64,000 bases of DNA from NCBI GenBank assembly GCA_002162675.1, contig MAAE01000015.1:34438-98437 (forward strand), written 5' to 3'. A model generated the notes under the pieces. That model ran no database searches. It worked only from the letters and a program-made list of their open reading frames with translations, and had not been told where the DNA came from. This document shows, one piece after another, positions 12,891 to 61,577 of the stretch (position 1 is the stretch's first letter; the number at the start of each line of letters is the position of its first letter). The DNA is from Colwellia sp. 39_35_sub15_T18. GTDB lineage: Bacteria > Pseudomonadota > Gammaproteobacteria > Enterobacterales > Alteromonadaceae. Position numbers and translations under genes: made by a program.

Positions 12891-13002
12891 GTCCTTAAAT
12901 TAAATCGTTCGAGCTCAATGATTAAATTTTAACTGAGTAAGCCCTTTCATTAAAGAAAGAGTTACAATAACTTACTATCCCCAATCAAATATAACCTTTT
13001 AC

Positions 13003-13770: not shown

Positions 13771-13788
13771 CTATGCTCTTTTGTAACT

Positions 13789-13880
13789 ATTCACCACCGA
13801 GCCGCTACGCTTCACAGAGGGCTCTTCGAGCCTACACAGAGGTTTTAATATTCTCGGTATAGCGTGGTGTTCTCTGTAGT
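13789..13880. repeat. REP-like intergenic element
   Basis: CACAGAGG twice (13813, 13835), opposed by CTCTGT (13872); ACCGAG/CTCGGT pair; starts just after a stop codon. Confidence 0.4.
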
Positions 13881-13927
13881 AATACTTTTAAGCTGAATAA
13901 ATACCTTCTTTTAACCAAAGTCGCTAT

Positions 13928-14107
13928 TTAGCTAAAAAAAATCCCTTTTATAATCGCGGCCAGCAAAATAACAAACACCAATATACGGCTAGTTTTACTA
14001 AATTTTGCTTGTTGCTCATCGCTCATCGGCTTACCGAATCGCTCGCCTAAAATCACCATTAGCGCGACAGCACCAAACACACAAGCTAATATAATTAATA
14101 AAGTCAT
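13928..14107 (-). CDS. Small two-TM membrane protein, 59 aa, not in ORF track
   Basis: MTLLIILACVFGAVALMVILGERFGKPMSDEQQAKFSKTSRILVFVILLAAIIKGIFFS*; AAGGGA upstream of ATG. Confidence 0.75.
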   Translation of the reverse strand: MTLLIILACVFGAVALMVILGERFGKPMSDEQQAKFSKTSRILVFVILLAAIIKGIFFS

Positions 14108-40787: not shown

Positions 40788-43700
40788 TTAATGCCACAAA
40801 GGATATCATCATTCTCAATGAAGGCAAGGTGCTAGATTGCGTCGATGAATTCACGAAAGCAATGCTGGATAGAGGTATTGTAACGGAAGGGATAAAAAGG
40901 CAGTCAACAATGTTATATCTTGATTACAAAGACCTTTCTCTCATACAACAAGGTGCATTTGCATACTATTTGATGCCCGTGCTAAAAAACATCACCATCA
41001 CTCGATTGCGTGAGTTGTATCAGATAACTCTAATTGCAAAAGGGGAATTTGACAAACAGAAAAAAATCGAAGACATCCTGAACTGTAAATTTCATCACCC
41101 AAAAGTTACTGCTGGTGTGCACGCAGCCTGCCTTACCTTGTTTGTTTGGCTGTGGGAGTATAGGATAGCGGTTTTGTCAGCCAACTTTAAAGTTATCGCA
41201 AAATATCGCATTGTTGGCAAGATTAGAAATGAAATATTAGACAAGCTCTTGGAACTACAAGTAGCAGGTGCTAAAAGCAACCAAGAGGTGGCAGATTATA
41301 GAGTAGCAGCAAGTTGCCTAGCTTACATTCTATCCACCGATTGGCGCTTATGGACAGATGTATCACTCTTAGGCTATTGGGAGAATTTACGTTCTCCTGA
41401 CGCAATCACACTTTCTTTTCACAGTGCTCCTAAACTTTTATTTGAGTTGGCTGCTGACAACGGAGCCGCATACTCACAAAAAGATGTAGACAATGTCTTT
41501 TCAAGAAGCGGCACGCATGCTGCAAAATTAGCAGATCCATTAATCCTGTTAAACACATTAGAACAAATAAACAACTATTTAGAAGGGTCAGTCACCATTG
41601 AAGGGATTAATGGTGGAACTTTGCAGATTGCCAGGAAAAAAGGCGTTTCCACATTATCCAGAATGAAAGCTAACGCCGCAAACGTCCGCTTTGGCGGGAG
41701 TATAAATGATTCTATAAAACTCGATGTTGGCAATATGAGACCTAAAGATAAGCTTGCCCATTATGCCAAGCACGATGATATGGATAATTACTTGAAATAC
41801 CTTCCTAAGCTGAAAAAAAATCATATAGACCTCAACTACCTGGACATGGGGTTTTATCCAGGTCTCAGCGTAGAGCCAAGAATTCAGTTTCCTGAATGGT
41901 GTACAGTGATTGAGGCTTACGTTAAAACAATTGTGACATCAATTAAAAGCCGCAAAGGATTTATTGCTTATCTTGCAGACTATCTGTTTGTCTACTTAGT
42001 TTGCTTTTATGAATCGAATACGAATGCGGTTCACCATCTTCCGACAAAAATTCAAGATTTTAGCCGTGTTATTTTCTGGGATCAAACCGTCATGCCAAAG
42101 GAATTGCAGACTAATGCACCGATAACTTTCGCTGAATTCATCAAAGAAAGAGCGCCTTCACATTCTGGCAAGATGGTTAACATTGCGCAGGGTTTCTTCG
42201 AATTTATAAAGACTAACTATTGCGACTACCATCCTGAGTTTCCTGACGCACTCGTGCTCAATAACTTCGAAAATCCAATCAATCAAAAGGCAGATGTTGC
42301 AGGTAAGTGGAATAACAAGTCCGCACCTACAAATAAGATCGCCATGCCGATAGAAACCTTGCCATTCGTCCACAACACGTTGCGTGTGCTTAACGAGGCG
42401 CATAATAAGCTACAGAAATTCCTTCTTAAGGATGAAAATGCGAGCAAGAGATCATCGTATACAAGAGAGCATCCTGTTTTTAAATTATCAGATTGGGATA
42501 TCGATTGCTCTTTTGAATTGAATGGGAAAACGGTGCGTTTTGATGTGATCCCTGATTTATTTAACTGGGAACGTGGTGGAGGCCATTATCCTGCCTTGAG
42601 TTGCTTTCGGATGCTAAGAACGAATGTGCATGCAGGTCAGCGAATGGAAAACATTCAATGGCTGGATATTGATAATTTTGACCAAAACTCACAAGGCCGA
42701 GTTAATGGCTACTTCCAACCACTCTGGATTGATATTGACAAAATATACGAAAGCCGTATCGCAAAAACCCCAACATTCATACTCGATGAACTCCAAGCAG
42801 AACGTGAATACCAAAGGACATATGGGCTTGAAATTTCGCCCATAAAATCAACTTTTTCAGAGAAACTTATTTCCCCTCTTTTTAGAAGTAACGCTGCTCA
42901 AAATACAGGTGGACCTTTTTGTGACCAAGCCTATTTAGATTTATGGGTAGATATACTCTGGTTTATTCAGCAACATTATAACGAATTTGTGCCTCCCTCT
43001 AAACAGCATAGCTTTGTGCGTTTGGTGCCCTATAAGGATAGCACGGGTAAGAATGCCAACAACTACCAATGGAATCAGGGCGTGCCTATTATCGACTCCG
43101 ATGGGGTACATCACAATGGCAATGCGACAGCACTTCAATTGCTTGCCGTCCATACACCACACTCTATGCGAAATACTTATACCGTAGCACGTAAAGGATT
43201 GATCGATTATCAAGATCTCATGGAACAGCAGGGTTGGACAGCAGAAGTCACCATGCATCATTATCTACAGGCCATGCATCAAAACGATAAAGAAAGGCTT
43301 TTAGAGTTGGCTGACAAATCAATAATGGAGGGTACATGTCTCACTGAGGGTGCGTCTTTACAGGCACTTTTTTTGCAAGGAAACAATGCTATTAGACCCT
43401 CAAAGGAAGGTTCTGCAATGAGTGAGTCGCTTGCCGCCGGAGCTGAGGCAGTCATTCATGATCAGGGCCTAATCTCTATACGAGTCACAGAGTTAGATGA
43501 ATATAGTGGTGATGACGGTCTGATGATGCTCAAAGCGCAACAACGCAGTATTAAACCCGTTATTTTTGACCATTGCCTCTGTCCCGCAGGGGGAGATTGT
43601 CCGAAAGAAATTGTTGCAATCATTGGCGAGAGAAATCGCTGTGGATTATGTCCTATCGCTTGCTACGGTATCGATCACATCAGCGGCCTGAATGCACGCA

Positions 43701-44197
43701 TAACTGAAAAGCGTGATGCGGCTAATAAAGGTCTCGATATGCTAAAACGGTTGGAAGCAAGAAATGAAGTTCCCTCTGCAACAGCTCATATCAAAGAACA
43801 GATCAATCTGAACCAATCCGAAGTTGGCTCAATGCGTATGACCGCTAATTTGCTTGAGAAAAAGCTAGAGCGCGGTGAATTAGATCGATACCTGTGCAGA
43901 CATCCAGATATGGTCAAAAATGTGGTTAAAATTTCAATTGATACCACCAGTGAACGTAACCTATTCCTCTCAAAATTGATCGATGCACAAGCGCACCCTC
44001 AATACTGTAGCGAAGGCTTCGTGGATCAGTGCTATGCACATTACCGAAGATTTAATGCTGATAAGAATAAACAAGATGTTGAAAGCGATCCCGTACAAGT
44101 TGTCGCGGGGCATTTATCAGCAATTATGCGAGAAAAAAATATAGGTATCAACCAATTGCTTTCAGTCCCTGAATTTAAACAACTGGTCGAGGTTTAG
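40784..44197 (+). CDS. Very large tyrosine-recombinase-like protein (VPA1269-like), 1137 aa
   Basis: AGQRMENIQWLD, HTPHSMRNTY, QGWTAEVTMHHY; Cys cluster CLCPAGGDCP...CGLCPIAC; ATGA overlap with the upstream integrase. Confidence 0.65.
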   Translation: MINATKDIIILNEGKVLDCVDEFTKAMLDRGIVTEGIKRQSTMLYLDYKDLSLIQQGAFAYYLMPVLKNITITRLRELYQITLIAKGEFDKQKKIEDILNCKFHHPKVTAGVHAACLTLFVWLWEYRIAVLSANFKVIAKYRIVGKIRNEILDKLLELQVAGAKSNQEVADYRVAASCLAYILSTDWRLWTDVSLLGYWENLRSPDAITLSFHSAPKLLFELAADNGAAYSQKDVDNVFSRSGTHAAKLADPLILLNTLEQINNYLEGSVTIEGINGGTLQIARKKGVSTLSRMKANAANVRFGGSINDSIKLDVGNMRPKDKLAHYAKHDDMDNYLKYLPKLKKNHIDLNYLDMGFYPGLSVEPRIQFPEWCTVIEAYVKTIVTSIKSRKGFIAYLADYLFVYLVCFYESNTNAVHHLPTKIQDFSRVIFWDQTVMPKELQTNAPITFAEFIKERAPSHSGKMVNIAQGFFEFIKTNYCDYHPEFPDALVLNNFENPINQKADVAGKWNNKSAPTNKIAMPIETLPFVHNTLRVLNEAHNKLQKFLLKDENASKRSSYTREHPVFKLSDWDIDCSFELNGKTVRFDVIPDLFNWERGGGHYPALSCFRMLRTNVHAGQRMENIQWLDIDNFDQNSQGRVNGYFQPLWIDIDKIYESRIAKTPTFILDELQAEREYQRTYGLEISPIKSTFSEKLISPLFRSNAAQNTGGPFCDQAYLDLWVDILWFIQQHYNEFVPPSKQHSFVRLVPYKDSTGKNANNYQWNQGVPIIDSDGVHHNGNATALQLLAVHTPHSMRNTYTVARKGLIDYQDLMEQQGWTAEVTMHHYLQAMHQNDKERLLELADKSIMEGTCLTEGASLQALFLQGNNAIRPSKEGSAMSESLAAGAEAVIHDQGLISIRVTELDEYSGDDGLMMLKAQQRSIKPVIFDHCLCPAGGDCPKEIVAIIGERNRCGLCPIACYGIDHISGLNARITEKRDAANKGLDMLKRLEARNEVPSATAHIKEQINLNQSEVGSMRMTANLLEKKLERGELDRYLCRHPDMVKNVVKISIDTTSERNLFLSKLIDAQAHPQYCSEGFVDQCYAHYRRFNADKNKQDVESDPVQVVAGHLSAIMREKNIGINQLLSVPEFKQLVEV

Positions 44198-44201
44198 TAA
44201 T

Positions 44202-44963
44202 ATGGGAAGACGTAAAGGTGATAACCCTTTTAAGTCTAGACAGTTAGGAATGATTGATGGAAAAATCAAACTGATCAATGGTTATTTGGCATCGCTACCG
44301 AAGGGGTTGACGTTTGAGGAATATAAAGATTTTGAAAAGTATATCGCCGACAAAGTTGGGTGTTGTATCACGACTATTACACGCCAAGATGCATATATTA
44401 AATTAATTGTCACCAAATGGGGGGATATGAATCCCGATATTGACAAGATAGACCCCGATAATGCGACTCCTGCTCAAATTAAAAAACTTGTAGATTATTA
44501 CAAGGTGGAAAGTGCAACCTCGAAAGGTGATTTACGAAGAAAGCAAAAATATTTTGAAAGCGCAGAATATATTAATGAGTGGCTAGAATCGAATGCCACG
44601 AGTGAGCAGCCTTATCTCATCCCTTGGCTAGCAGAAGCTGATATGGAGCCAAAACGCCTTTCTGACGACTCGGTCATAACTGAACAGACAAAGTTGCTAT
44701 CAGGCGGTTTAGATAAGCCAGAGGGCACTGGCAGTGAACCAAGTTGGCAGCAGAAATACGAAGTGACCTGTGAGGCTTTTGCTCTTTATATCTCTAAAAC
44801 GGGAAGCATATGGGGCATTAATTATGACCGTAAGGCAGACACTTTGATAGGCGCACCAATTACTGAGGATGATGACACCATTGATTATTACCTCCCAGAC
44901 GAAAGCGTTCCGAATGCCTCTTTAAGATATTTACGTGAATTCTTGGACGGAAAAGGACGCTAA
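44202..44963 (+). CDS. Hypothetical protein in the recombinase operon
   Basis: 253-aa ORF, 4 nt after the previous stop; no motif recognised. Confidence 0.7.
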   Translation: MGRRKGDNPFKSRQLGMIDGKIKLINGYLASLPKGLTFEEYKDFEKYIADKVGCCITTITRQDAYIKLIVTKWGDMNPDIDKIDPDNATPAQIKKLVDYYKVESATSKGDLRRKQKYFESAEYINEWLESNATSEQPYLIPWLAEADMEPKRLSDDSVITEQTKLLSGGLDKPEGTGSEPSWQQKYEVTCEAFALYISKTGSIWGINYDRKADTLIGAPITEDDDTIDYYLPDESVPNASLRYLREFLDGKGR

Positions 44964-44964
44964 C

Positions 44965-45465
44965 ATGTCAAACATATTGCTTGCTGAATTGAGCAACATG
45001 CCAGCCAACTCAAAATCAACAGTCATGTTGAAAGAGTACCTTAGTAAGTTGTTAAAAGAAGGCTGGAAGTTACCGGAGGGCAACAGCAAGGAAGGTGTTG
45101 ACATAACGGCTCTTACGAACTCAGCGGGGCTTGGGCGACAGGCGTTTTACCCTGACCGAGGTGCCGCTGAAACTATAACAATGTACCAATGGGCAGTGAA
45201 AAAAATTGGTATTGAAACCATTATTGAGCGAGAAGAACGCGCATTAAATTCAGACACAACTGACGCAGAAATATTAAAGACGATGCTGAAAGAATCCGAA
45301 AGAAAGCTTGGAGATAAAGGTAAAGAAGTTCTGAAGTTACAGGCACATAACAGAAACCTTGTTAAGCAACTTAAAAAACGTAATGACGAGATCGAGCAAA
45401 TGAATTCCGTCAATACAGCGCGTCTGGATGGATATGAGGTGATAATCCCGTGGATAAACGAATAA
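44965..45465 (+). CDS. Small HTH-like plus coiled-coil protein in the recombinase operon
   Basis: VDITALTNSAGLGRQAFY HTH-like segment followed by heptads; ATG 1 nt after the previous stop. Confidence 0.65.
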   Translation: MSNILLAELSNMPANSKSTVMLKEYLSKLLKEGWKLPEGNSKEGVDITALTNSAGLGRQAFYPDRGAAETITMYQWAVKKIGIETIIEREERALNSDTTDAEILKTMLKESERKLGDKGKEVLKLQAHNRNLVKQLKKRNDEIEQMNSVNTARLDGYEVIIPWINE

Positions 45466-45476
45466 TTAACAGCTTC

Positions 45477-47498
45477 ATGTTGGTGACATCCATTCGCCCA
45501 CAGCTTAACTCTGTTAGCGTCTCTGGCACATACGACAAGCAACAACGCACGGCTGAATTTCCAGACCTCAATAATATTCCGCGTGTTGGGGATTTAATTC
45601 AGATGAACGGCATCCTTGTACAAGGGGAGCGTCGAAGAGTTCTGAAAGTAAAAAGTTGGAAGCTTACACCTGCGACTGCCGCAAATATTTTTGAATTCAT
45701 TAAACGCGCTATATCCTTTAAGAGTGTCTTAAATAATCGACAGCTAAAAGCCCTTCATAAAGCCTACTTTGCCTTTCCAAGGCGGCTCATTGCAGCTATG
45801 TCGGGAAATCGAACAGCAGAATTGGAACGAGTCGTCGGTTGTTTCATGACTGCCGCCAAACTTGAAGGGGCTTGGGAGGTTCATCTCCGTGAACTCAAGG
45901 TTGTGCACTATTTGTCAGAATACAGCTTAAACCCGCAGGAGGCGCTCGCTATGCTCGATTTACATCACCTTAAAGTCATTGAGGTTGTTGAAACCAACCC
46001 CTACGCGCTGATGCCTGTCATAGGCTTTGAACGAGTGGACGCTATCTGTATGAAAAAAGGGATTGATGAATTTGACCCTCAACGGCTTGCTGCCCTTGGC
46101 TGTTACTTAGCTAGAAAGCAAACGCAGAATACTGGCAGTAGTCTGTTAAGCGAACATGACTTCAATATCGGAGCACAGGAGTTTGGGGTTGATACTCGTT
46201 CAATAATTTATGAATCAAAGCGCAGTGGGGTCTTGATTGTAAACGGGGAGTGTATAACTTCAGCTTGCTATCACGAGATGGAAACAAGGATTCGCACCTA
46301 TCTAACACAAGTAGAAAGGCTTCCTTGTGTGATGTTTCATGATTACGAAATTGACACTGAAATATCTCTATTTAACCGGATTGGAATATTCCCTTTGCAT
46401 GAAAAGCAAGCTTTGGCTGTTCGGCTCGCTATGCATCATCCAATCACCTGTATACGAGGCGCGGCAGGGGTTGGAAAAACAGAAGTCATCAATGCTATCT
46501 CAACCATTAACAAGCGAATGACAGGAACGTCTGTGACATCAACCGCGTTGAGTTCAATTGCTGTTGATCGTATAAAACAAGCCACAGGTCTTAAAGAATG
46601 CTACACAATCGCAAAACTCAAATCCGACTACTTGCTGAAAAAGCTAGACATCAAAGCTGGCACAATCTTAGTAGTTGATGAAAGCTCTATGCTGAGCGTT
46701 CAGGATCTATATGTGCTCTGTAACCTCGGTCTTCGTGATGTTCGTATAGTGTTTGTTGGTGACACAAATCAGTTAGAACCGATAGGTTACGGCTCTTTCT
46801 TTAAACAAGCGACACAATACTTTCCAACCACAACATTAACAAAAGTATGGCGAGCTGAGGCAAAAGAAATAACTTTTGCAGCCAACACTATTTTGAACGG
46901 TGAACGACCAAGTGCTCAAGGTGCATTTGGCTATATAAAAAGACAGATAAATGAAATAGTATCTTATGCACACGAAGAGAATGCACAAGTTATCGCTGCA
47001 ACAAATAGAACAGTGGCAAAGATAAACACGGAGATCCAAACAGCTAAATATTCTGCATCTGCGGTGCCAGACCTCTCGATTATGTCAACACCTTTTTATC
47101 GAGGTGATAGAGTGATTTTCACTAGGAACTTGAATAACTTAGGAATATACAATGGACAGTTTGCCAAGTTCGTATGGGCTAAGAACAACGAACTAGTATT
47201 TCATCTTGAAACTGCAAGCGGGAAGCACAGTGAAAAGATTATTAGTTATCATCAGGCTGCCAATGCAGGTGTTCAATTGGGGTACGCTTGTACGGGACAC
47301 AAGTCACAAGGGGCTGGCTTCGACAAAGTTGTAGCGGTGATGGAGAATATACCTATGTGCAATAAAAACTGGGCATACACAGCAATAACAAGAGCGAAAA
47401 AAGAAGTACGTGTTGCTGAAATTACAAGGCTAGAAACTGTGATGAACCAACCAATTCTACAACGAATGACGCAACGAATGGTTCCGCTAGTGTCTTAA
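45477..47498 (+). CDS. RecD2-like SF1B helicase/ATPase
   Basis: GAAGVGKT, VVDESSM, VGDTNQLEPIG, GYACTGHKSQG, YTAITRAK; N-terminal NPY..GFERVD segment; ATG at 45477 preferred over 45450. Confidence 0.88.
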   Translation: MLVTSIRPQLNSVSVSGTYDKQQRTAEFPDLNNIPRVGDLIQMNGILVQGERRRVLKVKSWKLTPATAANIFEFIKRAISFKSVLNNRQLKALHKAYFAFPRRLIAAMSGNRTAELERVVGCFMTAAKLEGAWEVHLRELKVVHYLSEYSLNPQEALAMLDLHHLKVIEVVETNPYALMPVIGFERVDAICMKKGIDEFDPQRLAALGCYLARKQTQNTGSSLLSEHDFNIGAQEFGVDTRSIIYESKRSGVLIVNGECITSACYHEMETRIRTYLTQVERLPCVMFHDYEIDTEISLFNRIGIFPLHEKQALAVRLAMHHPITCIRGAAGVGKTEVINAISTINKRMTGTSVTSTALSSIAVDRIKQATGLKECYTIAKLKSDYLLKKLDIKAGTILVVDESSMLSVQDLYVLCNLGLRDVRIVFVGDTNQLEPIGYGSFFKQATQYFPTTTLTKVWRAEAKEITFAANTILNGERPSAQGAFGYIKRQINEIVSYAHEENAQVIAATNRTVAKINTEIQTAKYSASAVPDLSIMSTPFYRGDRVIFTRNLNNLGIYNGQFAKFVWAKNNELVFHLETASGKHSEKIISYHQAANAGVQLGYACTGHKSQGAGFDKVVAVMENIPMCNKNWAYTAITRAKKEVRVAEITRLETVMNQPILQRMTQRMVPLVS

Positions 47499-47953
47499 TT
47501 TGTAGTAGCTCAAACTTGAATTGACACTTTTAGTAAATAGGACTTTATCAAGCCTGACGGTATCTAAAGCTACCACTATAGATTCTTTAAATTAAATTGT
47601 CATCTCTCCCGACTGACCTAAAACGTTCATGTGGTAATCGCACTACTTAATAGTCTAGTTTGTCTCGCTAATATTTGTATTCTCACCTTCTATAGTTTAA
47701 TGCTATGTGTAAAGGCAAAGAAATCAACCAGTCATGTTTACCCCTTATTATGTGCTTAAATGCTATTAAAGTACTATTGTAAAGGAAAATCACATTGAAA
47801 AAGCCAACGTAAATTATAATACATGTTGAAAAACAAAAACTTAAGTGGTGGGAGTAATTGTAAAATACAGGTAAAACAAATGGTTATACATTTCTATTGT
47901 ATAAGTTGGCTTTCTTTGTATAATAAATCAACTATTAACAAAGGAGTTATAAC

Positions 47954-48097
47954 ATGAACACTCAGCCAAATACAGCAACACCAACAAAACAACTTAGCCC
48001 TGTACTTGCTAGATTAATGGAAGAAGTTAGAAATAATAAAAATACTGTTGGTGGCAGTTATGATAGAACTCACAATCGCCACAATAGAGGCCAGTAA
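47954..48097 (+). CDS. yhhA: YhhA-family cyclophane RiPP (triceptide) precursor, 47 aa, not in ORF track
   Basis: MNTQPNTATPTKQLSPVLARLMEEVRNNKNTVGGSYDRTHNRHNRGQ*; AAGGAG RBS; YDR/HNR/HNR motifs; 5 nt before the rSAM gene (symbol unrelated to E. coli yhhA). Confidence 0.9.
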   Translation: MNTQPNTATPTKQLSPVLARLMEEVRNNKNTVGGSYDRTHNRHNRGQ

Positions 48098-48102
48098 CCT
48101 TT

Positions 48103-49221
48103 ATGGCAGTACGTTTGGATACGGTATTAATTAAAACGGCAAGCCGTTGTAATTTAGATTGCTCTTATTGTTATGTTTACCAAGGTGAAGATACTAGTTG
48201 GAAACAGCAACCTAAAAAGATGTCCGTAGAAACAATAAACGTGCTAGTTAACCGACTTGTTGAACAGTCACAAAGCCAAAGTGTCGGTTTTGCAATTGTT
48301 CTTCATGGAGGGGAGCCTTTATTGCTTGGGTATGAGCGATTGCAATATCTTCTTAAGCTATTAAGGGAGAGTTTTAATCACGAGCTATATCCGATAAGCC
48401 TACAAACCAATGGGGGCTTGTTAACAAAAAAGTATCTAGATCTTTTTTCTGATATGAAAGTTAGTGTCTCTGTTAGTATTGATGGGAATAGGCTCGCTAA
48501 TGATTTGGCTAGAGTCAGCCGTTCAGGACAAAGTTCATTTGATGATACCGTTAAAGGTATTCATTTATTGAAAAGCCATCCTGATAATGATTTTCTATTC
48601 GCTGGAACGCTTTCTGTTGTACAGCCATCTATATCACCACTCGACACCTACAATTTTTTGAAAAGTTTAGGCACTCCAAGCATGGATTTTCTATTTCAGG
48701 ATGGTAATCATGATAAATTACCGCTAGGTAAAATATCATTTGAGTCAACTGAATATGGTTCATGGATGTCTGAGTTATTGACGATTTATCTTTCTGATAA
48801 AGAGCCTGTAAAGATACCTTGTATTGATGACATTATAAGGTTATCGATGGGGGGGAAATCATCTAAAGAAGGGAAAGGGCAAGAGTCATTTGGTATTTTA
48901 ATAATAGAAACTGATGGTGAAATAAGAAAAAACGATACACTACGATTATCATTTGACGGTGCTGACTTTTTCAGTGTTAGGGAAAATGTTAGAGATACCC
49001 CTTTATCTAGGGTTATTAACTCTAGTGAATTTAAAGCTGTTTCTGAATTACAGACACCCACGTCTTCAACTTGTTTAAATTGTGCCTCTTTAGACGTTTG
49101 TGGTGGTGGAATGCCTCTTTACAGATGGAGCGATCAAAATGGATATGATAACCCTTCAATTTTCTGCAAAGATCATTATATTTTTATTGAAAATATAAAA
49201 TCCACTTTGCATGGAATCTAA
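48103..49221 (+). CDS. yhhB: Cyclophane-forming radical SAM/SPASM peptide maturase
   Basis: CNLDCSYC, HGGEPLL, IIETDG, C-terminal CLNCASLDVCGGG...IFC. Confidence 0.88.
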   Translation: MAVRLDTVLIKTASRCNLDCSYCYVYQGEDTSWKQQPKKMSVETINVLVNRLVEQSQSQSVGFAIVLHGGEPLLLGYERLQYLLKLLRESFNHELYPISLQTNGGLLTKKYLDLFSDMKVSVSVSIDGNRLANDLARVSRSGQSSFDDTVKGIHLLKSHPDNDFLFAGTLSVVQPSISPLDTYNFLKSLGTPSMDFLFQDGNHDKLPLGKISFESTEYGSWMSELLTIYLSDKEPVKIPCIDDIIRLSMGGKSSKEGKGQESFGILIIETDGEIRKNDTLRLSFDGADFFSVRENVRDTPLSRVINSSEFKAVSELQTPTSSTCLNCASLDVCGGGMPLYRWSDQNGYDNPSIFCKDHYIFIENIKSTLHGI

Positions 49222-49247
49222 TTTATTTTCATCAAATAGGCTAAATT

Positions 49248-49838
49248 ATGTTTCCAAATTTAAATGATATTGACTTTAAGGATGAACCTTATAAGTTTTT
49301 TTCTAGTTCTCCAAATACCGATGATAAAACGATATCAACATGGTTAGATTGGTTTGAAAATCAAGCGCCTTGGCGTTTAGTTGAGACGGATTTTTATGAG
49401 CAACATGAATTTAGCTTATTAAATATGGATTTGCCAGAATGTGTTTCTATCTTGGCTCATGAGGATACTTTAAATCATGTGAAAAGTAAGGTTGAGGAGT
49501 TATTTAATGTTCGACTTTCTAGTAATTTAGAAGTTATCGCTCATAAATTAGTTAAGGGTCAAACGATTCGAATTCATAATGACTTTCTAAATATTAATGA
49601 TAGAGAGACGCATAGAGTATTACTACAATTAAACCGAAATTTTGATGAAAGTAACGGTGGCTTTTTGATGATATTTAAAGGGAAGGAGCCTGAAGATTTA
49701 GTTGAGATAATCGAACCTATTAGTGGTTCTGTTCAAGGGTTTGAAATATCTTCTGAATCACATCATGCCGTGAGTACCATCCATAGCGGAGAAAGGTATA
49801 CAGTGGTTTATTCCTTTAGAGAAATAGTTAACGATTAA
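49248..49838 (+). CDS. yhhC: 2OG-Fe(II) oxygenase associated with the cyclophane RiPP
   Basis: IRIHND (HxD), GG.L, SHHAVS (distal H), ERYTVVYSF. Confidence 0.85.
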   Translation: MFPNLNDIDFKDEPYKFFSSSPNTDDKTISTWLDWFENQAPWRLVETDFYEQHEFSLLNMDLPECVSILAHEDTLNHVKSKVEELFNVRLSSNLEVIAHKLVKGQTIRIHNDFLNINDRETHRVLLQLNRNFDESNGGFLMIFKGKEPEDLVEIIEPISGSVQGFEISSESHHAVSTIHSGERYTVVYSFREIVND

Positions 49839-49981
49839 TTACAGAATATGAATGGCATAGCTACCTGTCAGATTTAATTAAGCTCTGTAATTTACAAATG
49901 TCAGAATTTCTGTTTCATCCAACACAACACACAAATCAATGCGCAATAACTTATGCCACCATTTAGTAATTCCGTTTACAG

Positions 49982-51361
49982 TTAACTGCATTTAGCGAAT
50001 ACCTCTAAGGCTTTTACTTGTTGCAACGCACAGTTTTTAGGCCAACCAAATCGCTTATCATCAGGAACACCTGCTGAAGTATCAAATGGCACTATCCATA
50101 AACTTAAGACACTCTCATCATCAAAATCAAAACTCTGCTCAATAGCCTCTTGAAAGTCAGCATGACTTGGGTAAATCAAAAATAGCTCACCTTTACCCTT
50201 TAAATATTTATGACCGTAGGCAAACATTTGATAAAAATCTGATTGTGATAAACCATATTTATTGTCTTCATCTGTTTGATTAATCAACTTCCACTTAGTA
50301 TCAAGTACGCAGGCACTTTGACCTTTTTTTATTCCGTTAGTGTAACGAAGTAAAAGGTCAGGTTTGAGTTGAAATCGTCTTTTACTTTTATGTTTAACCA
50401 AGTATTTAGAACTAGCTTGTGTCTTTAAACTTAAACCTTCAAGAGGATGTTTATTTAAAATACTCGCGACATAGCTTTCAAATACGGCTTCCATGGGGAA
50501 CAACAATGAAAAAGCATTACTTTTCCCTTGTAATGTTAGTGGTGAAAACCCTTCAAGAATTAGCCTTGTCCACGCAAGAGGGGCTTCATAATAATTCATA
50601 CCTCTATCGAGCTTGATACTGGCAAAATCATTCTTAATATTATTACTGACAGGTATGTCGGCAAAAGCAAACAGTAACTCTTGAATGAGTTTTTGGTTAT
50701 TGGCACTTCGACTGTAGCCACTTACTTTTTTTAGTGCTGTGTGAAGTAAACGATTTACGGGCCTATCTTGCTGATATTCTTCATACTCAACATAAAATTT
50801 ATGCTTATTAATGAAATTATGCTGAACTTGCTTGCCCACTAATAATTTACCTTTTAAGAAAGCAACATTATCTTGCTGTCTCACATAATCACTGCGTAAC
50901 CCTCGCTTAATTAGCGTATTTACCGCAGTCAAAAATTGGCTTATAAACACCTCTAATAACGGTATTTTATTTTTAGCCAAGTTAGCATTATGAGTTTGAA
51001 GATGGCGAAACTGCTTCAGTTCTTTTAACATCATCAACAGCGAGGCACGAGACACCTCTTTAGCATCACCACTTGCTATTTTTTTAGCAAGCTTTGGTAG
51101 AACTTCTATTTGTGTTCCGTCAGGCGTAAAAAGAACGCCTGCATAGTTTTGAACTTGCAGCACTTCACAATTATCAACCTGCTTTAAGCGTAAAAATCTA
51201 CTTTCTGATTCATCACACAAGCATAGTTTTTTTAAATAATCGTATGCTTTTTTAGAAATTGGTTTTATCTTGGCAGAGGCTTGGATTTTATTACTATCAT
51301 CATCGCCATTACCTAAATAACCAAATTCAAATACGGATGTTTGTTTCTTTACAACCAGCAT
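49982..51361 (-). CDS. mcrC: McrC-family restriction nuclease subunit
   Basis: VQNYAG, IEVLPK, LFPMEAVFE, LKPDLLL...LDTKWK...SDFYQMFAY; start overlaps the mcrB stop. Confidence 0.9.
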   Translation of the reverse strand: MLVVKKQTSVFEFGYLGNGDDDSNKIQASAKIKPISKKAYDYLKKLCLCDESESRFLRLKQVDNCEVLQVQNYAGVLFTPDGTQIEVLPKLAKKIASGDAKEVSRASLLMMLKELKQFRHLQTHNANLAKNKIPLLEVFISQFLTAVNTLIKRGLRSDYVRQQDNVAFLKGKLLVGKQVQHNFINKHKFYVEYEEYQQDRPVNRLLHTALKKVSGYSRSANNQKLIQELLFAFADIPVSNNIKNDFASIKLDRGMNYYEAPLAWTRLILEGFSPLTLQGKSNAFSLLFPMEAVFESYVASILNKHPLEGLSLKTQASSKYLVKHKSKRRFQLKPDLLLRYTNGIKKGQSACVLDTKWKLINQTDEDNKYGLSQSDFYQMFAYGHKYLKGKGELFLIYPSHADFQEAIEQSFDFDDESVLSLWIVPFDTSAGVPDDKRFGWPKNCALQQVKALEVFAKCS

Positions 51362-53646
51362 TAAGCGTTGCTCTTTTCAGCCACAACAGAGTCTTCACCT
51401 GTAGCAGGTTCTTCATTAACAGATGCTTTATCTATCTTTTTAAGTACAGTTTCATCATAAATTGCTTGGTATGCCAGATGGTTATGCCATGCAGAGTGCT
51501 CATCATCAAAATCAGCGAGTTTGAAGGTCGTCTTTTTATCTTCATAGGTTTCTAAACCATGATCTTCGCCAAAAATATCGTTATATGACGAGACATGCTT
51601 TTTAATGAAAACATATGGGATTAACGCCTTACTCTTCTTTCGATTATCACCCAGCACTAAACGTATTTTATTCCAATCTTCAAAAAAATATTCTTCTAAT
51701 AATGGGATGATTTTATTTCTAAAGACATGTTGAAGCTCTTCAAAGGCTTTATCTTCGTCTTCTAAATCAACTATGGCAGCAACAGGCATAAAGAACGCAT
51801 GACCTAGCGTATGCTCTCGGTCATAAAGCACTTCAATACGTTCATTCATTTTACTCAGTAACAAATTAAGCTTAATGCCGTTAACCGACTTACCTGCAAA
51901 TAATTCAGGTTTTGGCATCATTTCAACAAAATCAAAACGACGGCGTAATGCAGTATCCATCATCGCCAACGATCTATCTGCCGTGTTCATCGTACCAATG
52001 ATGTGAAGGTTGTCAGGAACAGAAAAAAGAACATTTGAATAAGGCAACGTTACTTCTATCGCTTCAGGTTGTCCGTTACGTTTTGATGGTTCTATTAGAG
52101 TAATTAACTCACCAAATATTCTTGAAATGTTACCTCGGTTAATTTCATCAATAATTAAAACAAAGTTTTTTCTTTCCACAGCAGGCATCTGCTCAGGAGC
52201 ACTAATCTCTCTTAAAAATTTGACTAACGGACGATAGTAAACTCCTAATCCAGACTTGTACTCACGTCTACCTTCAAAAATTTCTCTTAGGGTGGAAATA
52301 CTTAATGTGTGATCTTGGCTGCCACCTCTTTTTTCAAAAAATATCCGCTTGTCATTAAAGTCCAAAATTTTAAATGAGGTCTTAGACATATTCACTTCAA
52401 CGTAATCTTCTTCAGAAAACAGTTCTGTAAAAGCTAACCAAGCATTGTCGAAATTATATGTCGATTCAGAGGCTTTACTATTGAGAAACTTTTCGGCCTG
52501 ACGAGCTATGTCTTTAAAAACACCAGCTTCAACATCGTAGGATATATTGCCATCATCTGAAGAAGCTTTAAGCCCTTCAACAAATTCTTCATAACCATAA
52601 CTTTGATGAAAAGTAACAAACCTAATTCGGCCTTCTGACACTAAATCATCGTATTGCTCTTGATACTCTGCTCTTACTTCATCAATAGAACCTTCTTCAG
52701 GAGAAAATCCAGGCTCTGCCGCATTAACAGCTTCCACTATTGTATTATATGTTTTACCTGTTCCTGGAGGGCCATAAAGGATCTTATTTAAAGACCCTTG
52801 AGTTATTGTTGGATATTTCTGTTCATCAGAATTAACAAAACTTTCACTGTTATTTTTCATGAACAATTCAAAATTTTGTTTCGCACCGTTAAAAGCAAAA
52901 TCAATTAAGGCTTTACGTTCTGGTTTGTCTGGTAAGACTCTCCAAATACGTTTTTGATAGGTATACATGTACCAAGTTAATTTTTTAAAATTGGGTTGCC
53001 AGTCAACTTTTACGGTTTTACCATCATTTAAATTCTCAATAACGATACCAATAGCTTTGATATCCATGACCGATGCCATTTTTCCATTGTTATCAAAAGG
53101 TAAACCATGAGTTTGAGTGTATACTGACTTTATTGCGATCTTATCGCCTTTTTGTATTTGTTTTATTTTATCAGTATATTTCCCATCATTACCGCCTTGC
53201 CAGATACTTTCCTTAATAAACCGTTCAGTTTGGTCATCAACGCCACCATATGAAGCGCCTAAAAACCAATACACTTTATTACTTTCATCACTCTTTCCCT
53301 GTACTTCAAACCCCAAAGTGCTAGCTTTATCTACGAACCTTGAAATATTATCGATACCCCATTGAGTCGTTATCAATAACTCCCCATCTGTAACAGAAAT
53401 AATTTCATCATCTTTGGAAAAGTAACGATTATTTTTTTTATCATCAGAGTTTTCAGGTAATGCATCATATTCAATTTTATTTATAAAAATCCCTCTTGTA
53501 CCTTGCAGTTCATTAGGAAAAGCTTCGAGTAACTCCTGCAAGTTTGGCGCTTCATTTTCAACGTATTCCTTTATCACAGCTAAAACTAAACGGTTCTTAT
53601 GGTGAGAGCGCCCATTAAATATATATTTTGTAAAATCTTTTAGCAT
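51361..53646 (-). CDS. mcrB: McrB-family AAA+ GTPase with extended N-terminal specificity domains
   Basis: LYGPPGTGKT, TFHQSYGYEEFVEG, IIDEINRGN, GTMNTADRS, ALRRRF. Confidence 0.92.
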   Translation of the reverse strand: MLKDFTKYIFNGRSHHKNRLVLAVIKEYVENEAPNLQELLEAFPNELQGTRGIFINKIEYDALPENSDDKKNNRYFSKDDEIISVTDGELLITTQWGIDNISRFVDKASTLGFEVQGKSDESNKVYWFLGASYGGVDDQTERFIKESIWQGGNDGKYTDKIKQIQKGDKIAIKSVYTQTHGLPFDNNGKMASVMDIKAIGIVIENLNDGKTVKVDWQPNFKKLTWYMYTYQKRIWRVLPDKPERKALIDFAFNGAKQNFELFMKNNSESFVNSDEQKYPTITQGSLNKILYGPPGTGKTYNTIVEAVNAAEPGFSPEEGSIDEVRAEYQEQYDDLVSEGRIRFVTFHQSYGYEEFVEGLKASSDDGNISYDVEAGVFKDIARQAEKFLNSKASESTYNFDNAWLAFTELFSEEDYVEVNMSKTSFKILDFNDKRIFFEKRGGSQDHTLSISTLREIFEGRREYKSGLGVYYRPLVKFLREISAPEQMPAVERKNFVLIIDEINRGNISRIFGELITLIEPSKRNGQPEAIEVTLPYSNVLFSVPDNLHIIGTMNTADRSLAMMDTALRRRFDFVEMMPKPELFAGKSVNGIKLNLLLSKMNERIEVLYDREHTLGHAFFMPVAAIVDLEDEDKAFEELQHVFRNKIIPLLEEYFFEDWNKIRLVLGDNRKKSKALIPYVFIKKHVSSYNDIFGEDHGLETYEDKKTTFKLADFDDEHSAWHNHLAYQAIYDETVLKKIDKASVNEEPATGEDSVVAEKSNA

Positions 53647-53710: not shown

Positions 53711-54790
53711 TTAACTCTCTTGTTCTTCTGGGTAAGCCAGTGGTGTAACAGCAGACCATCCTTCGCGTGCTGGTGCATTATTCTGCGTTCTTATACAGCC
53801 ATCTTCAGTCGAAATAACTTTACCTTTTCGATGAATCATACCTCTAACAACAGATTTTCTTGGATGATGTTCATCTTCTTTGGATGCACTAACAATTGCT
53901 GTAAAAGTAGTGTCATCAGGTGCAGGTTGAAAGAAAGGTTTCTCACCTAACCAACGATCTAATAATTCAGTCGAGACATTTCGTCTAGAGCCATGATGTG
54001 GCACTTGAAAACGGTCTATACCTGGCAATGCAAGTCCAGCATATGGAGCATAATCAGCGGCTTCGGTTAATGCATCACGTCCAGCATCACCTGTAAGTAA
54101 TATTTTGTTGTCACATAAATAAGCATACTGAACAACACTCATTTCATTTTCCGCAGAAGTTGGATCTGATGAAAAATTCTCATCTCCCCAAAGCACAGCC
54201 ACTATGGTACGAGCAGCTTCATTCAACATTCCGAACAAGCCACTAAAAACATCTTCAGATTTTTCGTGATGTTCAGGGGTTTTATCAGACTCAACAACTA
54301 AATCTAAATATCGAGTTTTAGACGGAGCCATTACCGTAAACCCTCCAATAAAAGCACCTTGTAACGGCTCTTTTATAGTTATACCTTTTTGTGAGGCAAT
54401 ATCTTCTAACGCAACTAAGTTGGGGTATAATTCTTTTAATCTTTTCTTTAAATTTTCTACTGAAGTGAAACGCTTGAATCTATCGATAAGCTCGTCTGCA
54501 TAAAGCCACGGCCTCAACATCCATAGCTCACCAACATTATAACTTTCTAATACTGTTCTTAACCCACCAGCATGATCACCATCAGGATGAGTTACTACAA
54601 CTGCATCAATATAAGTTGGTGTGCCATAATGTTCATTTATATGCGCAACTACTTTGTCACCTGTAGCTTGAAAGCCGCCATCAACAACATGAATTCGTTG
54701 AACTCCATTGGTTTGATACCTAATGCAAATAGCATCGCCACTTTTTTTAGAATCAACGTTTAAAAAATCAATTTCATAAAAGTCATCCAT
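53711..54790 (-). CDS. MBL-fold metallo-hydrolase (ComEC/Rec2-like catalytic domain, standalone)
   Basis: VVDGG, THPDGDHAGG, LLTGDA, QVPHHGS, HHP. Confidence 0.85.
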   Translation of the reverse strand: MDDFYEIDFLNVDSKKSGDAICIRYQTNGVQRIHVVDGGFQATGDKVVAHINEHYGTPTYIDAVVVTHPDGDHAGGLRTVLESYNVGELWMLRPWLYADELIDRFKRFTSVENLKKRLKELYPNLVALEDIASQKGITIKEPLQGAFIGGFTVMAPSKTRYLDLVVESDKTPEHHEKSEDVFSGLFGMLNEAARTIVAVLWGDENFSSDPTSAENEMSVVQYAYLCDNKILLTGDAGRDALTEAADYAPYAGLALPGIDRFQVPHHGSRRNVSTELLDRWLGEKPFFQPAPDDTTFTAIVSASKEDEHHPRKSVVRGMIHRKGKVISTEDGCIRTQNNAPAREGWSAVTPLAYPEEQES

Positions 54791-55260
54791 TACTTCTCTT
54801 CCTTATTATCTTCACTCAACTTCCCATTTCTGGTTTTTTCTATGCCAAATAATGACTTACCAATTTCTTCAATTTTTGCCACAAATTTATCAACGTTTAG
54901 CCCTGCAAAAAAAGCAAATGCATAATAACCAAAATTACCAGCATCAGTGTCTTGAGACGCATCCAGAACAACTAAACCAGCTTTCAAAAATACATAAGCC
55001 ACAATCCCGCATATAAAACTGGTTAATGGTCGCAAGTAGTACCAAATTTCCCACGATTTAGTCCACCTGTCATGAACACAGCGATTGAGATAAACGGAGC
55101 GTAGGCAATACAAAACACCACCTAATGTGGCTATCAACGCACATCGAATTGCCAATTCACTCTCAGCTAATGATTCAGGCAAGCCAAATTGCTCTAGACC
55201 TAAAAATACAGACGCTATTATTAAAAGCATCACTACCAAATATGTAATCACCAATTTCAT
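54790..55260 (-). CDS. Uncharacterised multi-TM membrane protein
   Basis: About four hydrophobic segments; WYYLRP...G and FAFFAG; stop overlaps the MBL start. Confidence 0.75.
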   Translation of the reverse strand: MKLVITYLVVMLLIIASVFLGLEQFGLPESLAESELAIRCALIATLGGVLYCLRSVYLNRCVHDRWTKSWEIWYYLRPLTSFICGIVAYVFLKAGLVVLDASQDTDAGNFGYYAFAFFAGLNVDKFVAKIEEIGKSLFGIEKTRNGKLSEDNKEEK

Positions 55261-55273
55261 TTACGTTCCTTGT

Positions 55274-56440
55274 CTATAGTTCGCCAGAGAAAGCTTTTTG
55301 GCTCAAAGATTCAAACAATGGTTGATGACTTTGATTTTTAGCCCGTTGCAACAATTGCAATGTACTTTGAACTATTGATTCAAACCTCTCTTGCACACCT
55401 ATTGGTGGGACAATAACATCAAGAGACTCTACTTGCAGTTTTGTAAGAGCTTCTCTAGTTGCACCACCAGCACTAGCGATACTCATGATCTTTTGTTTGT
55501 AACTACTCGATGTAATTAACCTTGCTATAAAAATTGGCAATACCTTTTCTGGTTTAGTTCTTACGATACATACGTGCTGGTTAACTCTTGCGGGTAATAT
55601 GTCATTATCAACCAGCGCAGCCCTACAAACAGAAGCTCCCGTTATGTTCAATAAAAGATCATCTTTTTCAATTATCACGTTTTTTAACTTTTCAGCCTGT
55701 TCATCCGATATAAAAGCGAGATTTTTATGTACAAATTTATTGTCATGAACATTTAGACTACGGATTAACGAAATGCCTTGCTCAATATATGCCTCCTTAC
55801 CACCTCTAGGCGTAGAACCACTTCCTAACTTATTAGTTAGTTCTTTTAGTGATTTAACATCCCAACCTTTCGGATTGGTGACGGGATCGCCAAACATATC
55901 TAGGAAGACGCTGCGGAGGAAGTCGTCGGCGAGGTTGATGCCTTGTTGGCGTTTTCGGCGAATGGCATCGGCTTTATCTAATATCGTAACGATGCGTTTT
56001 TGCTCATTCAGTGGTGGCAGTAACATTGGATAATCTTTAAGAGCATCCATATCTACACCACTTTGACCAGCAGTGCGCTGTGATAAGCCATCAATTAATC
56101 GAAAAAGCTTATCTTGTTTCAAAAAATGGTAAAGATAATCTTTATCTACTTTTTCTGAAGGTTTTGCTTTCATTAAGGCAACATTATATGCACCTTCTAG
56201 CCCTTTTAATATTTGGAATACCGGGGGGCCATAACGCCCAATCATTACGTCATGCTTAGTACAAAACTTCTTAGTTGAGTCTTCTTTAATATAAGTTAAG
56301 TTCTTATCAGATTTATAATCTCTAATTTGCAATAAGCGAACATACCCTTCTTTAGGCTCATATATGAAGGAAGATTTTGGAGGTTGTGATCCACCAACAA
56401 AACTAACAACATCTCCAAGCTTAACTACAGGGCAACTCAC
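55274..56440 (-). CDS. hsdS: Type I R-M specificity subunit
   Basis: Two TRDs with conserved [10 protein letters not shown] and PPIGVQERF repeats; GTG start overlaps the hsdM stop. Confidence 0.92.
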
Positions 56441-58026
56441 AGCATTTTCTCCAACACTTTTAAATCAGCTAAAATTTCATTTTCTAAGCTCACTAGCTTA
56501 CCTAAGATCTCTTTTGGTGGATCGTAGCTTTCTTCTTCATATACAACTTCTTTGTAGCGGTTGATGGAAAGGTCGTATTTGTTCGAAGTAATATCATCTT
56601 TACTTACCCAAAAAGCTTTCTGAGTTTTATCGTTTTTGTCCGTTTCAGCAACGGATTTATCACGCGCTTTAAATTCAGCTACTAAGCTTGGCAAGTCATT
56701 ATCTTTAATTGGGGTACGTTTATCATCAAGCGAGAAACCATCGGCTTGTACATCATAAAACCAAACATGGTCGGTAGTGCCACCTTTAGTGAAAATTAGA
56801 ATAGCAGTTGATACACCCGCATAAGGTTTAAAGACACCACTTGGCAGTGAAATAACGGCTTCAAGCTGATTGTTATCAATTAATAACTGACGCAGTTGCA
56901 CGTGGCCTTTTGATGAACCAAATAATACACCATCAGGCACGATAGTCGCTGAGCGGCCACCCACTTGTAACATGCGCTCAATAAGCGCTACAAAAAGCAA
57001 CTCTGTTTTCTTAGTTTTAACTTTACGTAATAGTTCTGGGCAAACATCTTCTTCGTCTAATGACCCTTTGAACGGTGGATTGGCGAGAATAATTTGCATG
57101 CCGCCTTTTGCTTCATTAGGGAAGTTTTCACTAAAGCGCTGGCTTAAGGTATCTTGATAATGAATGTCGGGCTGTTTAATACCGTGCATTACCAAGTTCA
57201 TTACTGCAACACGTAACATGGTAGCGTCAAAGTCAAAGCCGTGAAACATGTCAGTATCAATGTGTTTTCTGTCTTCTGGTTCAATTAAGTCGCCAGAATA
57301 AAGTACATTTTCAACTTGCTTGCCATGGATATCTAACATCGGTATACCTGCATCATCGCCTTCGCTGATGAATAGTGGCTCTCGTTCAATGCCTTCGGCA
57401 GAGGTATATTTTTCCAGCAAGTATTCATAAGAAACAGATAAAAAACCACCTGTTCCAGTTGATGGATCGCAAATACGGCTGGTTTTATCAGGGTCCATGA
57501 TTTCAACCATGGCACGAATGATATGACGTGGCGTTCTAAACTGACCGTTAATACCTGCGGTTGTTAACTTACTAAGCAAGTATTCATATAAATCACCTTT
57601 GGTATCGGAATTATCAAGTGGCAAGTCGTTAACCATTTCTACCGCTTTTACCAATAAGCTTTGCTTTTGGATCATCAATTGCGCATCTTTCATAAACTCG
57701 GCAAACAGTGATCCTTCATTATCTTCTGATGAACTTGAAGCAAAAAATGGAAACAGCTCATCTTTTACCACTTTATAAAGCTCTTCAGCACCTAAATGGC
57801 GAATATTTTGCCAGCGCAAATGTTGCTGCTGTTCGTTAAAGCGGTGATTAAACGCTTTTTTAGTACGGGCGCTGCGTTTTTCATCAGCTTGTTCGTTCAT
57901 ATCAAGCATGCGGGCATACATTAAAAAGGTAATTTGCTCAATTACCGTTAACGGATTGGTTATACCGCCCGTCCAGAATTCTTCCCAAAGTTTGTCTATT
58001 TTGCTTTTTAGTGGACCAGTGATCAT
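56437..58026 (-). CDS. hsdM: Type I R-M N6-adenine methyltransferase
   Basis: [34 protein letters not shown]. Confidence 0.94.
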
Positions 58027-58110
58027 GTGGTTCTCTTCGTTTTGTTTTATTCGGCTGTGACTATAAATTTGTTAGTTAGCCTAATATTGATTTTAAAATT
58101 AGTATTAAAT

Positions 58111-61551: not shown

Positions 61552-61577
61552 TCCTGTTTGATTCCTTGTGTCCATAA

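Follow-up and report, generated by a model that had tools for sequence, protein, structure and literature searches.

What does a cross-linked peptide do in a cell when no exporter, peptidase or immunity gene adjoins the genes that make it? The question is raised by a small cassette in the window analysed here (the whole stretch of 64,000 nucleotides from Colwellia sp. 39_35_sub15_T18), in which three co-directional open reading frames occupy positions 47954-49838 of the forward strand (Table 1). These frames coincide exactly with those that an earlier, sequence-only reading had described as a 47-aa precursor followed by a radical SAM enzyme and a 2OG oxygenase. The translated precursor, MNTQPNTATPTKQLSPVLARLMEEVRNNKNTVGGSYDRTHNRHNRGQ, carries the leader motif S-P-V-L-A-R-L-M-E-E-V-R-N, lacks a hydrophobic signal sequence, and ends in the core Y36DRTHNRHNRGQ47, where the three aromatic-X-Arg motifs of that description are found near the C-terminus (Y36-D37-R38, H40-N41-R42 and H43-N44-R45).

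Table 1. Features of the yhhABC locus and its surroundings, in window coordinates.
Feature	Position	Strand or orientation	Evidence
Tyrosine recombinase (integrase)	39342-40787	co-directional with yhhABC	
RecD-like SF1 helicase	45450-47498	co-directional with yhhABC	
Putative promoter, TTGTAT / 16 nt / TATAAT	47897..47924	+	read from sequence, weak evidence
Shine-Dalgarno AAGGAG, 7 nt ahead of yhhA ATG	47941..47946	+	read from sequence
yhhA, 47-aa precursor	47954..48097	+	NF041705, 65 bits (cut-off 36)
yhhB, cyclophane-forming radical SAM/SPASM maturase (three-residue cyclophane-forming enzyme), 372 aa	48103..49221	+	NF041707; Pfam Radical_SAM
yhhC, 2OG-Fe(II) oxygenase, 196 aa	49248..49838	+	NF041706; Pfam 2OG-FeII_Oxy_3/4
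McrC, McrB	49982-53646	convergent, downstream of yhhC	PF10117, E 3.7e-99
HsdS/M/R, type I R-M	55274-61575	convergent, downstream of yhhABC	

The proposed identity of the cluster as a YhhA/B/C triceptide pathway was borne out by comparison with NCBIfam. All three proteins exceed the equivalog cut-offs, well past what chance would give (YhhA, E 4.9e-18; YhhB, E 3.2e-149, 496.9 bits against a cut-off of 445; YhhC, E 4e-73, 245 bits against a cut-off of 150), and the cluster therefore belongs to the known YhhABC family; on the models of its sister families, FxsB and XyeB, the window YhhB scores lower (297.8 and 158.8, respectively). YhhB contains the CX3CX2C motif (C16-x3-C20-x2-C23) and four C-terminal cysteines that are all family-invariant (C324, C327, C333 and C355), and YhhC contains an H-x-D motif (H110-N-D112) plus later histidines. 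The precursor had also been called unannotated, which proved mistaken: a curated model exists, and gene callers do call yhhA in identical public contigs, where the same gene arrangement is seen. Judged by homology, the locus is thus an intact YhhABC triceptide cassette, a new member of a pathway that is already known and biochemically characterised. Compared with an 85%-identical relative (L057), dN/dS is 0.10 for yhhA, 0.10 for yhhB and 0.13 for yhhC; at about 0.1, the cassette is under purifying selection and is not decaying, and these values indicate that the reduced three-gene form, which has no effector gene, is functional.

The promoter signals are weak. A perfect -10 hexamer lies ahead of yhhA (47919-47924), and the accompanying -35 hexamer matches at 3 of 6 positions only, which is why this candidate promoter is absent from the consensus-scan list; the promoter and terminator scan of 47300-50200 gave hit numbers fewer than, or no more than, those in shuffled sequence, and nothing usable. 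The yhhC start lies 27 nt past yhhB on the same strand.

The chemistry of this pathway was reported by Sugiyama et al. (2022, J Am Chem Soc 144:11580, as cited in PMC11002830, PMC11499958 and PMC12186529). As described in the citing papers, YhhB links Tyr-C3 to Arg-C-beta and His-C2 to Arg-C-beta, the latter forming an "HNR cyclophane" (PMC11002830, PMC11499958), and the YhhC product is L-erythro-beta-hydroxy-Asp (PMC12186529), such that the type system of the family is reported to contain three C-C cyclophane cross-links (-2 Da each) and one beta-hydroxy-Asp (+16 Da) (PMC11002830, PMC11499958, PMC12186529). The open-access text that mentions YhhB gives no biological function for its products, in keeping with the statement of the sequence-only reading that none was established. 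Applied to the window, this scheme predicts that the ribosome makes the YhhA precursor, that YhhB, by radical SAM chemistry, would join Tyr36-C3 to Arg38-C-beta, His40-C2 to Arg42-C-beta and His43-C2 to Arg45-C-beta to give three small cyclophane rings, and that YhhC would beta-hydroxylate Asp37. For the family these steps are established by published biochemistry; for the window locus we infer them from equivalog-level homology.

The type pathway shares its gene set and gene order with the window, and the core YDRTHNRHNRGQ is common to the window and both Neisseria loci examined (L028, read directly, and L032, by tblastn). It is likewise a three-gene form, with neither of the additional genes described below (the HExxH gene and PtuAB). 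The window YhhB is 46-49% identical to the Neisseria/Moraxella YhhB and falls in a separate clade, and the window copy differs from the type pathway in being carried as integrase-island cargo, next to McrBC and type I R-M.

In that island, upstream of yhhABC, lies a tight co-directional operon (39342-47498) encoding the integrase, proteins of 1137, 253 and 176 aa, and the RecD-like helicase. The three intervening proteins have no family match, and for the 1137-aa protein Pfam, NCBIfam, PADLOC, the PDB and plasmids gave none. Downstream and convergent lie McrC, McrB, an MBL-fold protein, a 156-aa ORF and HsdS/M/R, followed by an RtcR-like regulator, so that the immediate neighbours of the cassette are the helicase and McrC. 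The reported placement between a mobility operon and McrBC/type I R-M is therefore correct, and with McrBC and type I R-M clustered with a recombinase the region is a defence island. Neither a tRNA nor convincing flanking direct repeats (37.5-64 kb) that would mark its ends were found, and the GC profile is unremarkable (yhh 0.35, window mean 0.38). McrBC was considered as a functional partner of yhhABC and set aside as a coincidence, the pairing being found only in the window lineage.

A scan of one genome per species yielded 44 Yhh loci, which span Gammaproteobacteria, Alphaproteobacteria, Acidobacteriota, one spirochaete, Neisseria, Moraxella and Acinetobacter. The A-B-C order is retained in 41/44; the other three (L031, L032 and L045) retain yhhB and yhhC, their precursor not being picked up in one of two screens. 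Across these relatives the YhhA core, Y-[DN]-R-x-H-[NH]-R-H-N-R, is almost unchanged and is preceded by a conserved leader motif, P-x-L-x-R-L-x-E-E-V-[RK]; counted over 60+ loci from Proteobacteria, Acidobacteriota and Spirochaetia, the form Y-D-R-x-H-N-R-H-N-R is near-invariant.

Clustering of the neighbouring ORFs revealed three further conserved genes, all missing from the window. Directly 3' of yhhC, 36 of the 44-locus set carry an aKG-HExxH peptide hydroxylase (TIGR04267, E 9e-31). The ATPase-HNH pair of Septu, PtuA/PtuB, occurs in 25/44 loci, all from MAGs or metagenomes and none from cultured isolates, and in 8/44 an OLD-like ATPase-Toprim protein takes its place; altogether, 33/44 species-level loci contain one or the other within the block, mostly 58-450 bp from the yhh genes, with gene calls that are crude in high-GC loci. 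As in stand-alone Septu, the linked proteins are full-length matches to the PADLOC Septu models (PtuA, PDLC00304, E 4e-131; PtuB, PDLC00339, E 6e-84), and PtuA matches solved PtuA structures; they also match the NCBIfam PtuA and PtuB models, with scores below the curated cut-offs. The OLD-like protein is an ABC-type ATPase in which the Walker A/B motifs are invariant and Toprim-like motifs, LCEDxVAEG and LDGD, are present; it matches PADLOC HEC-04 (1.5e-36) and the retron type I-B ATPase-Toprim model (3e-22). PtuAB takes three placements: divergent upstream, co-directional upstream (Acidobacteriota), or between yhhC and the HExxH gene, as ptuBA in L009, L019 and L039. The window itself encodes neither PtuA nor PtuB and so is not a Septu locus; HMMs built from the Yhh-linked relatives found no PtuA, PtuB, OLD-like ATPase or HExxH gene in a six-frame translation of the 64 kb.

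The link between nuclease and yhh genes also shows in trees and distances. A reciprocal metagenome scan seeded with Yhh-linked PtuA yielded 80 loci, and in the resulting neighbour-joining tree (which, like that of YhhB, has no support values) all 30 full-length Yhh-linked PtuA proteins fall in one clade. Its sister consists of stand-alone PtuAB, which has no conserved third gene, and yhh is never present beside the more distant PtuA. Only L067 departs from this pattern within the linked clade, and its sequence follows that of L068 at 99% identity until a breakpoint that falls within ptuB. The relationship is thus asymmetric: PtuA of this clade is never intact without yhh, while yhh does occur without PtuAB. 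Pairwise distances of YhhB and PtuA are strongly correlated (r = 0.90; 0/2000 Mantel permutations as high), near the value for PtuA and PtuB themselves (0.93), and may in part reflect shared vertical descent. Yhh-linked and stand-alone PtuA showed no clade-specific insertion, acidic patch or charge change that would hint at a peptide-binding site.

In the YhhB tree, each of the three deep clades contains the architecture with PtuAB and HExxH, one clade has PtuAB at some loci and the OLD-like ATPase at others, and the three-gene form has arisen in two clades, both derived: that of the window and that of Neisseria/Moraxella. The six-gene block of ptuA-ptuB, yhhABC and the aKG-HExxH hydroxylase is thus probably the predominant and deepest architecture of the family. 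Gene content and trees together argue that the Yhh family is tied, physically and phylogenetically, to Septu and OLD-type nucleases. This link is the new element here, the YhhABC pathway and its chemistry being known; no mention of PtuA together with RiPP, radical SAM, SPASM or 2OG enzymes was found in the open-access literature.

The sequence-only reading had proposed a defence role on other grounds, namely the island placement of the cassette and its lack of export, and had suggested scoring defence-gene enrichment around yhhB homologues. Inside the block, nucleases are embedded; beyond it, the wider flanks hold ordinary, heterogeneous housekeeping genes, with no family occurring more than 3 times in 147 ORFs and only sporadic PADLOC hits, and no enrichment was seen there around the six-gene systems. 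The claim of a nuclease link therefore rests on the embedded genes and not on islands, and the heterogeneity of the flanks marks the block itself as the conserved unit. The defence idea is supported in part, through the relatives and not through the window locus: for the family it gains from the PtuAB or OLD-like gene in 33/44 blocks and from the single PtuA clade, evidence of another kind than island placement and stronger, while the window cassette carries neither nuclease gene. Nucleic-acid binding by the peptide, which the same reading entertained, is pure speculation. YhhB is absent from IMG/VR (one 26% radical SAM match only) and from GenBank phages (matches of at most 31% identity).

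Where the peptide acts bears directly on its role. Characterised radical SAM RiPPs are mostly secreted bioactive peptides, and the Yhh product could be a classical antibiotic or signal of this kind, exported and freed of its leader by unlinked generic transporters and proteases, with the proximity of nucleases reflecting co-transfer of accessory genes. The window YhhA does have a Gly-Gly pair ahead of its core (G33-G34), an ABC ATPase lies within 5-7 kb in 3/44 loci, and there is an ABC system near L032. However, the Gly-Gly pair is not conserved (SS in L057, NGA in L050, other residues in most relatives) and no PCAT is present, which rules out a double-glycine leader site, and the ABC system of L032 is an NMT1-type importer. 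The earlier observation that no transporter, protease or immunity gene is adjacent holds for the window and, as regards exporters and proteases, extends to the relatives, where about 60 loci show no recurring exporter or protease next to the cassette and the 147 flanking ORFs no recurring C39 peptidase, exporter or transporter family (MFS_1 in 2/147); a dedicated exporter or leader peptidase, as found in clusters for exported RiPPs, is thus missing from window and relatives alike. With a core that is invariant across phyla instead of diversified, and a PtuA clade obligately linked to yhh, we consider secretion unlikely. With exporters and peptidases missing across the family, no signal sequence on YhhA and an invariant core, the mature peptide would remain in the cytoplasm.

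A cytoplasmic peptide could also be a cofactor. In the PQQ and mycofactocin systems a radical SAM/SPASM enzyme acts on a small peptide, no exporter is present and the product is cytoplasmic; the Yhh peptide might similarly be a peptide-derived cofactor, or a metal binder like the copper-chelating bufferins, whose His/Arg-rich rings bind metal or serve in redox reactions. The absent exporter, the His-rich and strongly conserved core, and the embedding of some effector-less cassettes in metabolic genes are all compatible with this. The PQQ and mycofactocin clusters, however, contain processing enzymes and partner dehydrogenases, and no such gene recurs at Yhh loci, nor does any metal-homeostasis gene; the cross-links use up the His C2 positions, and neither the obligate PtuAB/OLD-like linkage nor the presence of cassettes on a conjugative plasmid and in integrase islands would be explained. 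On balance a cofactor or metal-binding role appears quite unlikely.

The cassettes without an effector occur in varied settings. Some of them, like that of the window in its island, have defence genes or mobile elements around them: L057 lies beside the Pycsar genes PycTM and AGS_C cyclase, an AAA_15/21 ATPase and ResIII/VspR; on a conjugative plasmid of Vibrio echinoideorum (type MOBF/MPF_F), where traY is some 8-10 kb distant, the cassette is accompanied by a kinase/PP2C pair, an AAA ATPase and a PvuRts1I-like gene; and L060 lies in an integrase island with HxsBCD, PIN and YafO. Others occur in non-defence settings (urease, DsbD/SHMT, Mfd, a sulfonate importer, T6SS). In Neisseria, in Moraxella and in a Pseudomonas MAG, effector-less cassettes adjoin housekeeping genes and are under purifying selection, so the peptide must have some role for which no cis-encoded nuclease is required. 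The nuclease link of the window copy accordingly holds by family, not by locus. One further possibility, that such cassettes are orphan antitoxins or anti-defence modules whose peptide silences Yhh-type PtuAB or OLD nucleases and so protects an island or plasmid entering a host with such a system, would fit both the toxin-antitoxin pattern expected of a PtuA clade never intact without yhh, with yhh occurring without PtuAB, and the effector-less cassettes on the Vibrio plasmid and in integrase islands, but it is wholly inferential, several effector-less cassettes are chromosomal and bear no mobile-element signature, and no genome is known where both forms meet, making it very unlikely.

The closest parallel to the nuclease-linked loci comes from retrons. 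PtuAB serves as the effector of type I-A retrons, and an ABC-ATPase-Toprim protein as that of type I-B retrons (PMC7736814); in Ec78, a complex of RT, ncRNA and msDNA sequesters PtuAB, which is toxic once displaced and is released upon phage attack (PMC12819146). Like Retron-Septu (type I-A, Ec78/Eco7) and the type I-B retrons (PMC12819146, PMC12640716, PMC7736814), the Yhh relatives join a biosynthetic module to PtuA and PtuB or to an ABC-ATPase-Toprim protein, with an effector clade tied to the module. They differ in having no reverse transcriptase or ncRNA, their product being a modified cationic peptide and not msDNA: neither yhh nor PtuAB has a reverse transcriptase as its neighbour, whether in the window or in its relatives, and a group II intron accounts for the sole match in the 147 flanking ORFs. 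In the window an effector is missing altogether, and effector sequestration by Yhh would be an analogy only. A second precedent is provided by lanthiphages, anti-phage lanthipeptide clusters of Actinobacteria whose function was shown experimentally (bioRxiv 10.1101/2024.06.26.600839): here too a RiPP pathway with a defence role was found by co-location with defence genes, in another RiPP class, with other enzymes and in other phyla. Lanthiphages are not described as nuclease-fused, and the anti-phage role of Yhh is putative.

These observations suggest a model in which the matured Yhh peptide stays in the cytoplasm and, in conflict with phages or mobile elements, binds or regulates ABC-ATPase nucleases, taking the part that RT-msDNA plays in retron-Septu. 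We favour this regulator model because the effector clade is never intact without the module while the module occurs alone, the pattern of a toxin and its neutralising or sensing partner, and we put the chances of the whole model at about even. The same, roughly even, standing applies to a conflict-related cytoplasmic role, and the antitoxin-like detail is less probable than that. At the level of the family the evidence supports such a role in the cytoplasm and in conflict; we infer it for the window copy, the reduced cargo of an integrase island, which would act alone or on a partner encoded elsewhere.

More tentatively, it is possible that Yhh-type triceptides are intracellular immune components and not natural-product antibiotics, with the peptide as a sensor or antitoxin that restrains a PtuAB or OLD-like nuclease, a peptide counterpart of retron msDNA. 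Making the peptide would require SAM, Fe-S clusters, O2 and 2-oxoglutarate, and its supply could therefore signal metabolic takeover by a phage, for example by SAM-degrading anti-restriction enzymes. Cassettes on mobile elements that carry no effector, such as that of the window beside its SAM-dependent type I R-M, might then be stand-alone guards or anti-Septu decoys.

If this is true, Yhh would be the second case, after retrons, in which a biosynthetic module has co-opted the PtuAB effector, and would join the few RiPPs that have been implicated in defence against phages. Triceptides are a large RiPP class with solved chemistry, and the tie to nucleases makes the purpose of the Yhh products experimentally approachable.

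Comparing YhhA cores across the loci, we found that three-gene cassettes end in YDRTHNRHNRGQ, and in cassettes that also carry the aKG-HExxH hydroxylase gene the core is mostly YDRVHNRHNRG[RK], or ends at HNR. YNR takes the place of YDR in some metagenomic cores.

The operon preceding yhhA (see table) could serve mobility, or it could be a defence system not yet recognised as such. Its 481-aa tyrosine recombinase bears a weak GmtY-like match, scoring 33 bits where the cut-off is 340, and its RecD-like helicase matches PADLOC type IV RecD and PDC-S68/S53. Searches of Pfam, NCBIfam and PADLOC gave no hit for the 1137-, 253- and 176-aa proteins encoded alongside, and the 1137-aa protein was not matched in the PDB or among plasmids either. 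In an Acinetobacter locus (L022) this place ahead of yhhA is taken by two recombinases and unknown proteins of 719 and 138 aa.

On the other side of yhhABC, residues 3-116 of the McrB homologue match the PADLOC candidate PDC-S57 (E 4e-12), and because of this match its long N-terminal region is suggested to hold a non-canonical DNA-recognition domain. Placed between mcrB and hsdS are the MBL-fold gene, whose product is weakly similar to Avs1a-MBL and 6A-MBL, far under the cut-offs, and the 156-aa ORF. The island may end, on this far side, with the gene for the RtcR-like activator, immediately after hsdR.

Features of the window island and of related yhh loci
Feature	Location	Coordinates	Strand
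Five-gene operon, overlapping genes	window	39342-47498	+
McrB homologue, 761 aa, long N-terminal region	window	51361-53646	-
MBL-fold protein (359 aa) and unknown 156-aa ORF	window	53711-55260	-
Sigma-54 activator, RtcR-like, N-terminal CARF-like domain	window	61621-63123	-
yhhABC (L050/L142)	Vibrio echinoideorum plasmid p1	record 12137-14001	
PtuAB pair and OLD-like ATPase fragment	L039	8707-9531 and 11985-14179	
HxsB/C/D	L060	13704-16475	
HxsB/C/D	L143	12840-15092	
Distant fused 'YhhB' (PGAP name)	L143, Rhizobium tumorigenes plasmid		
Distant fused 'YhhB' (PGAP name)	L144, Novosphingobium pentaromativorans pLA4		

The Vibrio plasmid p1 is conjugative (MOBF/MPF_F). Some 8-10 kb separate its yhhABC from traY, with the cassette facing away from the tra operon, a position that may correspond to the plasmid leading region. 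This cassette adjoins a 660-aa AAA_15/21 ATPase and a paired Ser/Thr kinase and PP2C.

Both fused 'YhhB' proteins (roughly 710 aa; distant, at 31-35% identity) are accompanied by a YhhA-family precursor, a GNAT protein and a glycosyltransferase; the Rhizobium copy neighbours Fic and ParDE, and the Novosphingobium copy neighbours a Piwi-domain protein, a SMEK-domain protein, two integrases and a DNA methylase. L060 and L143, which are unrelated loci, each have a His-Xaa-Ser radical SAM system, another peptide-rSAM type, a few kb or less from the yhh cassette.

Finally, one related locus (L039) carries both the Septu pair PtuAB and a fragment of the alternative effector gene, the OLD-like ATPase, which looks like the footprint of an effector exchange.
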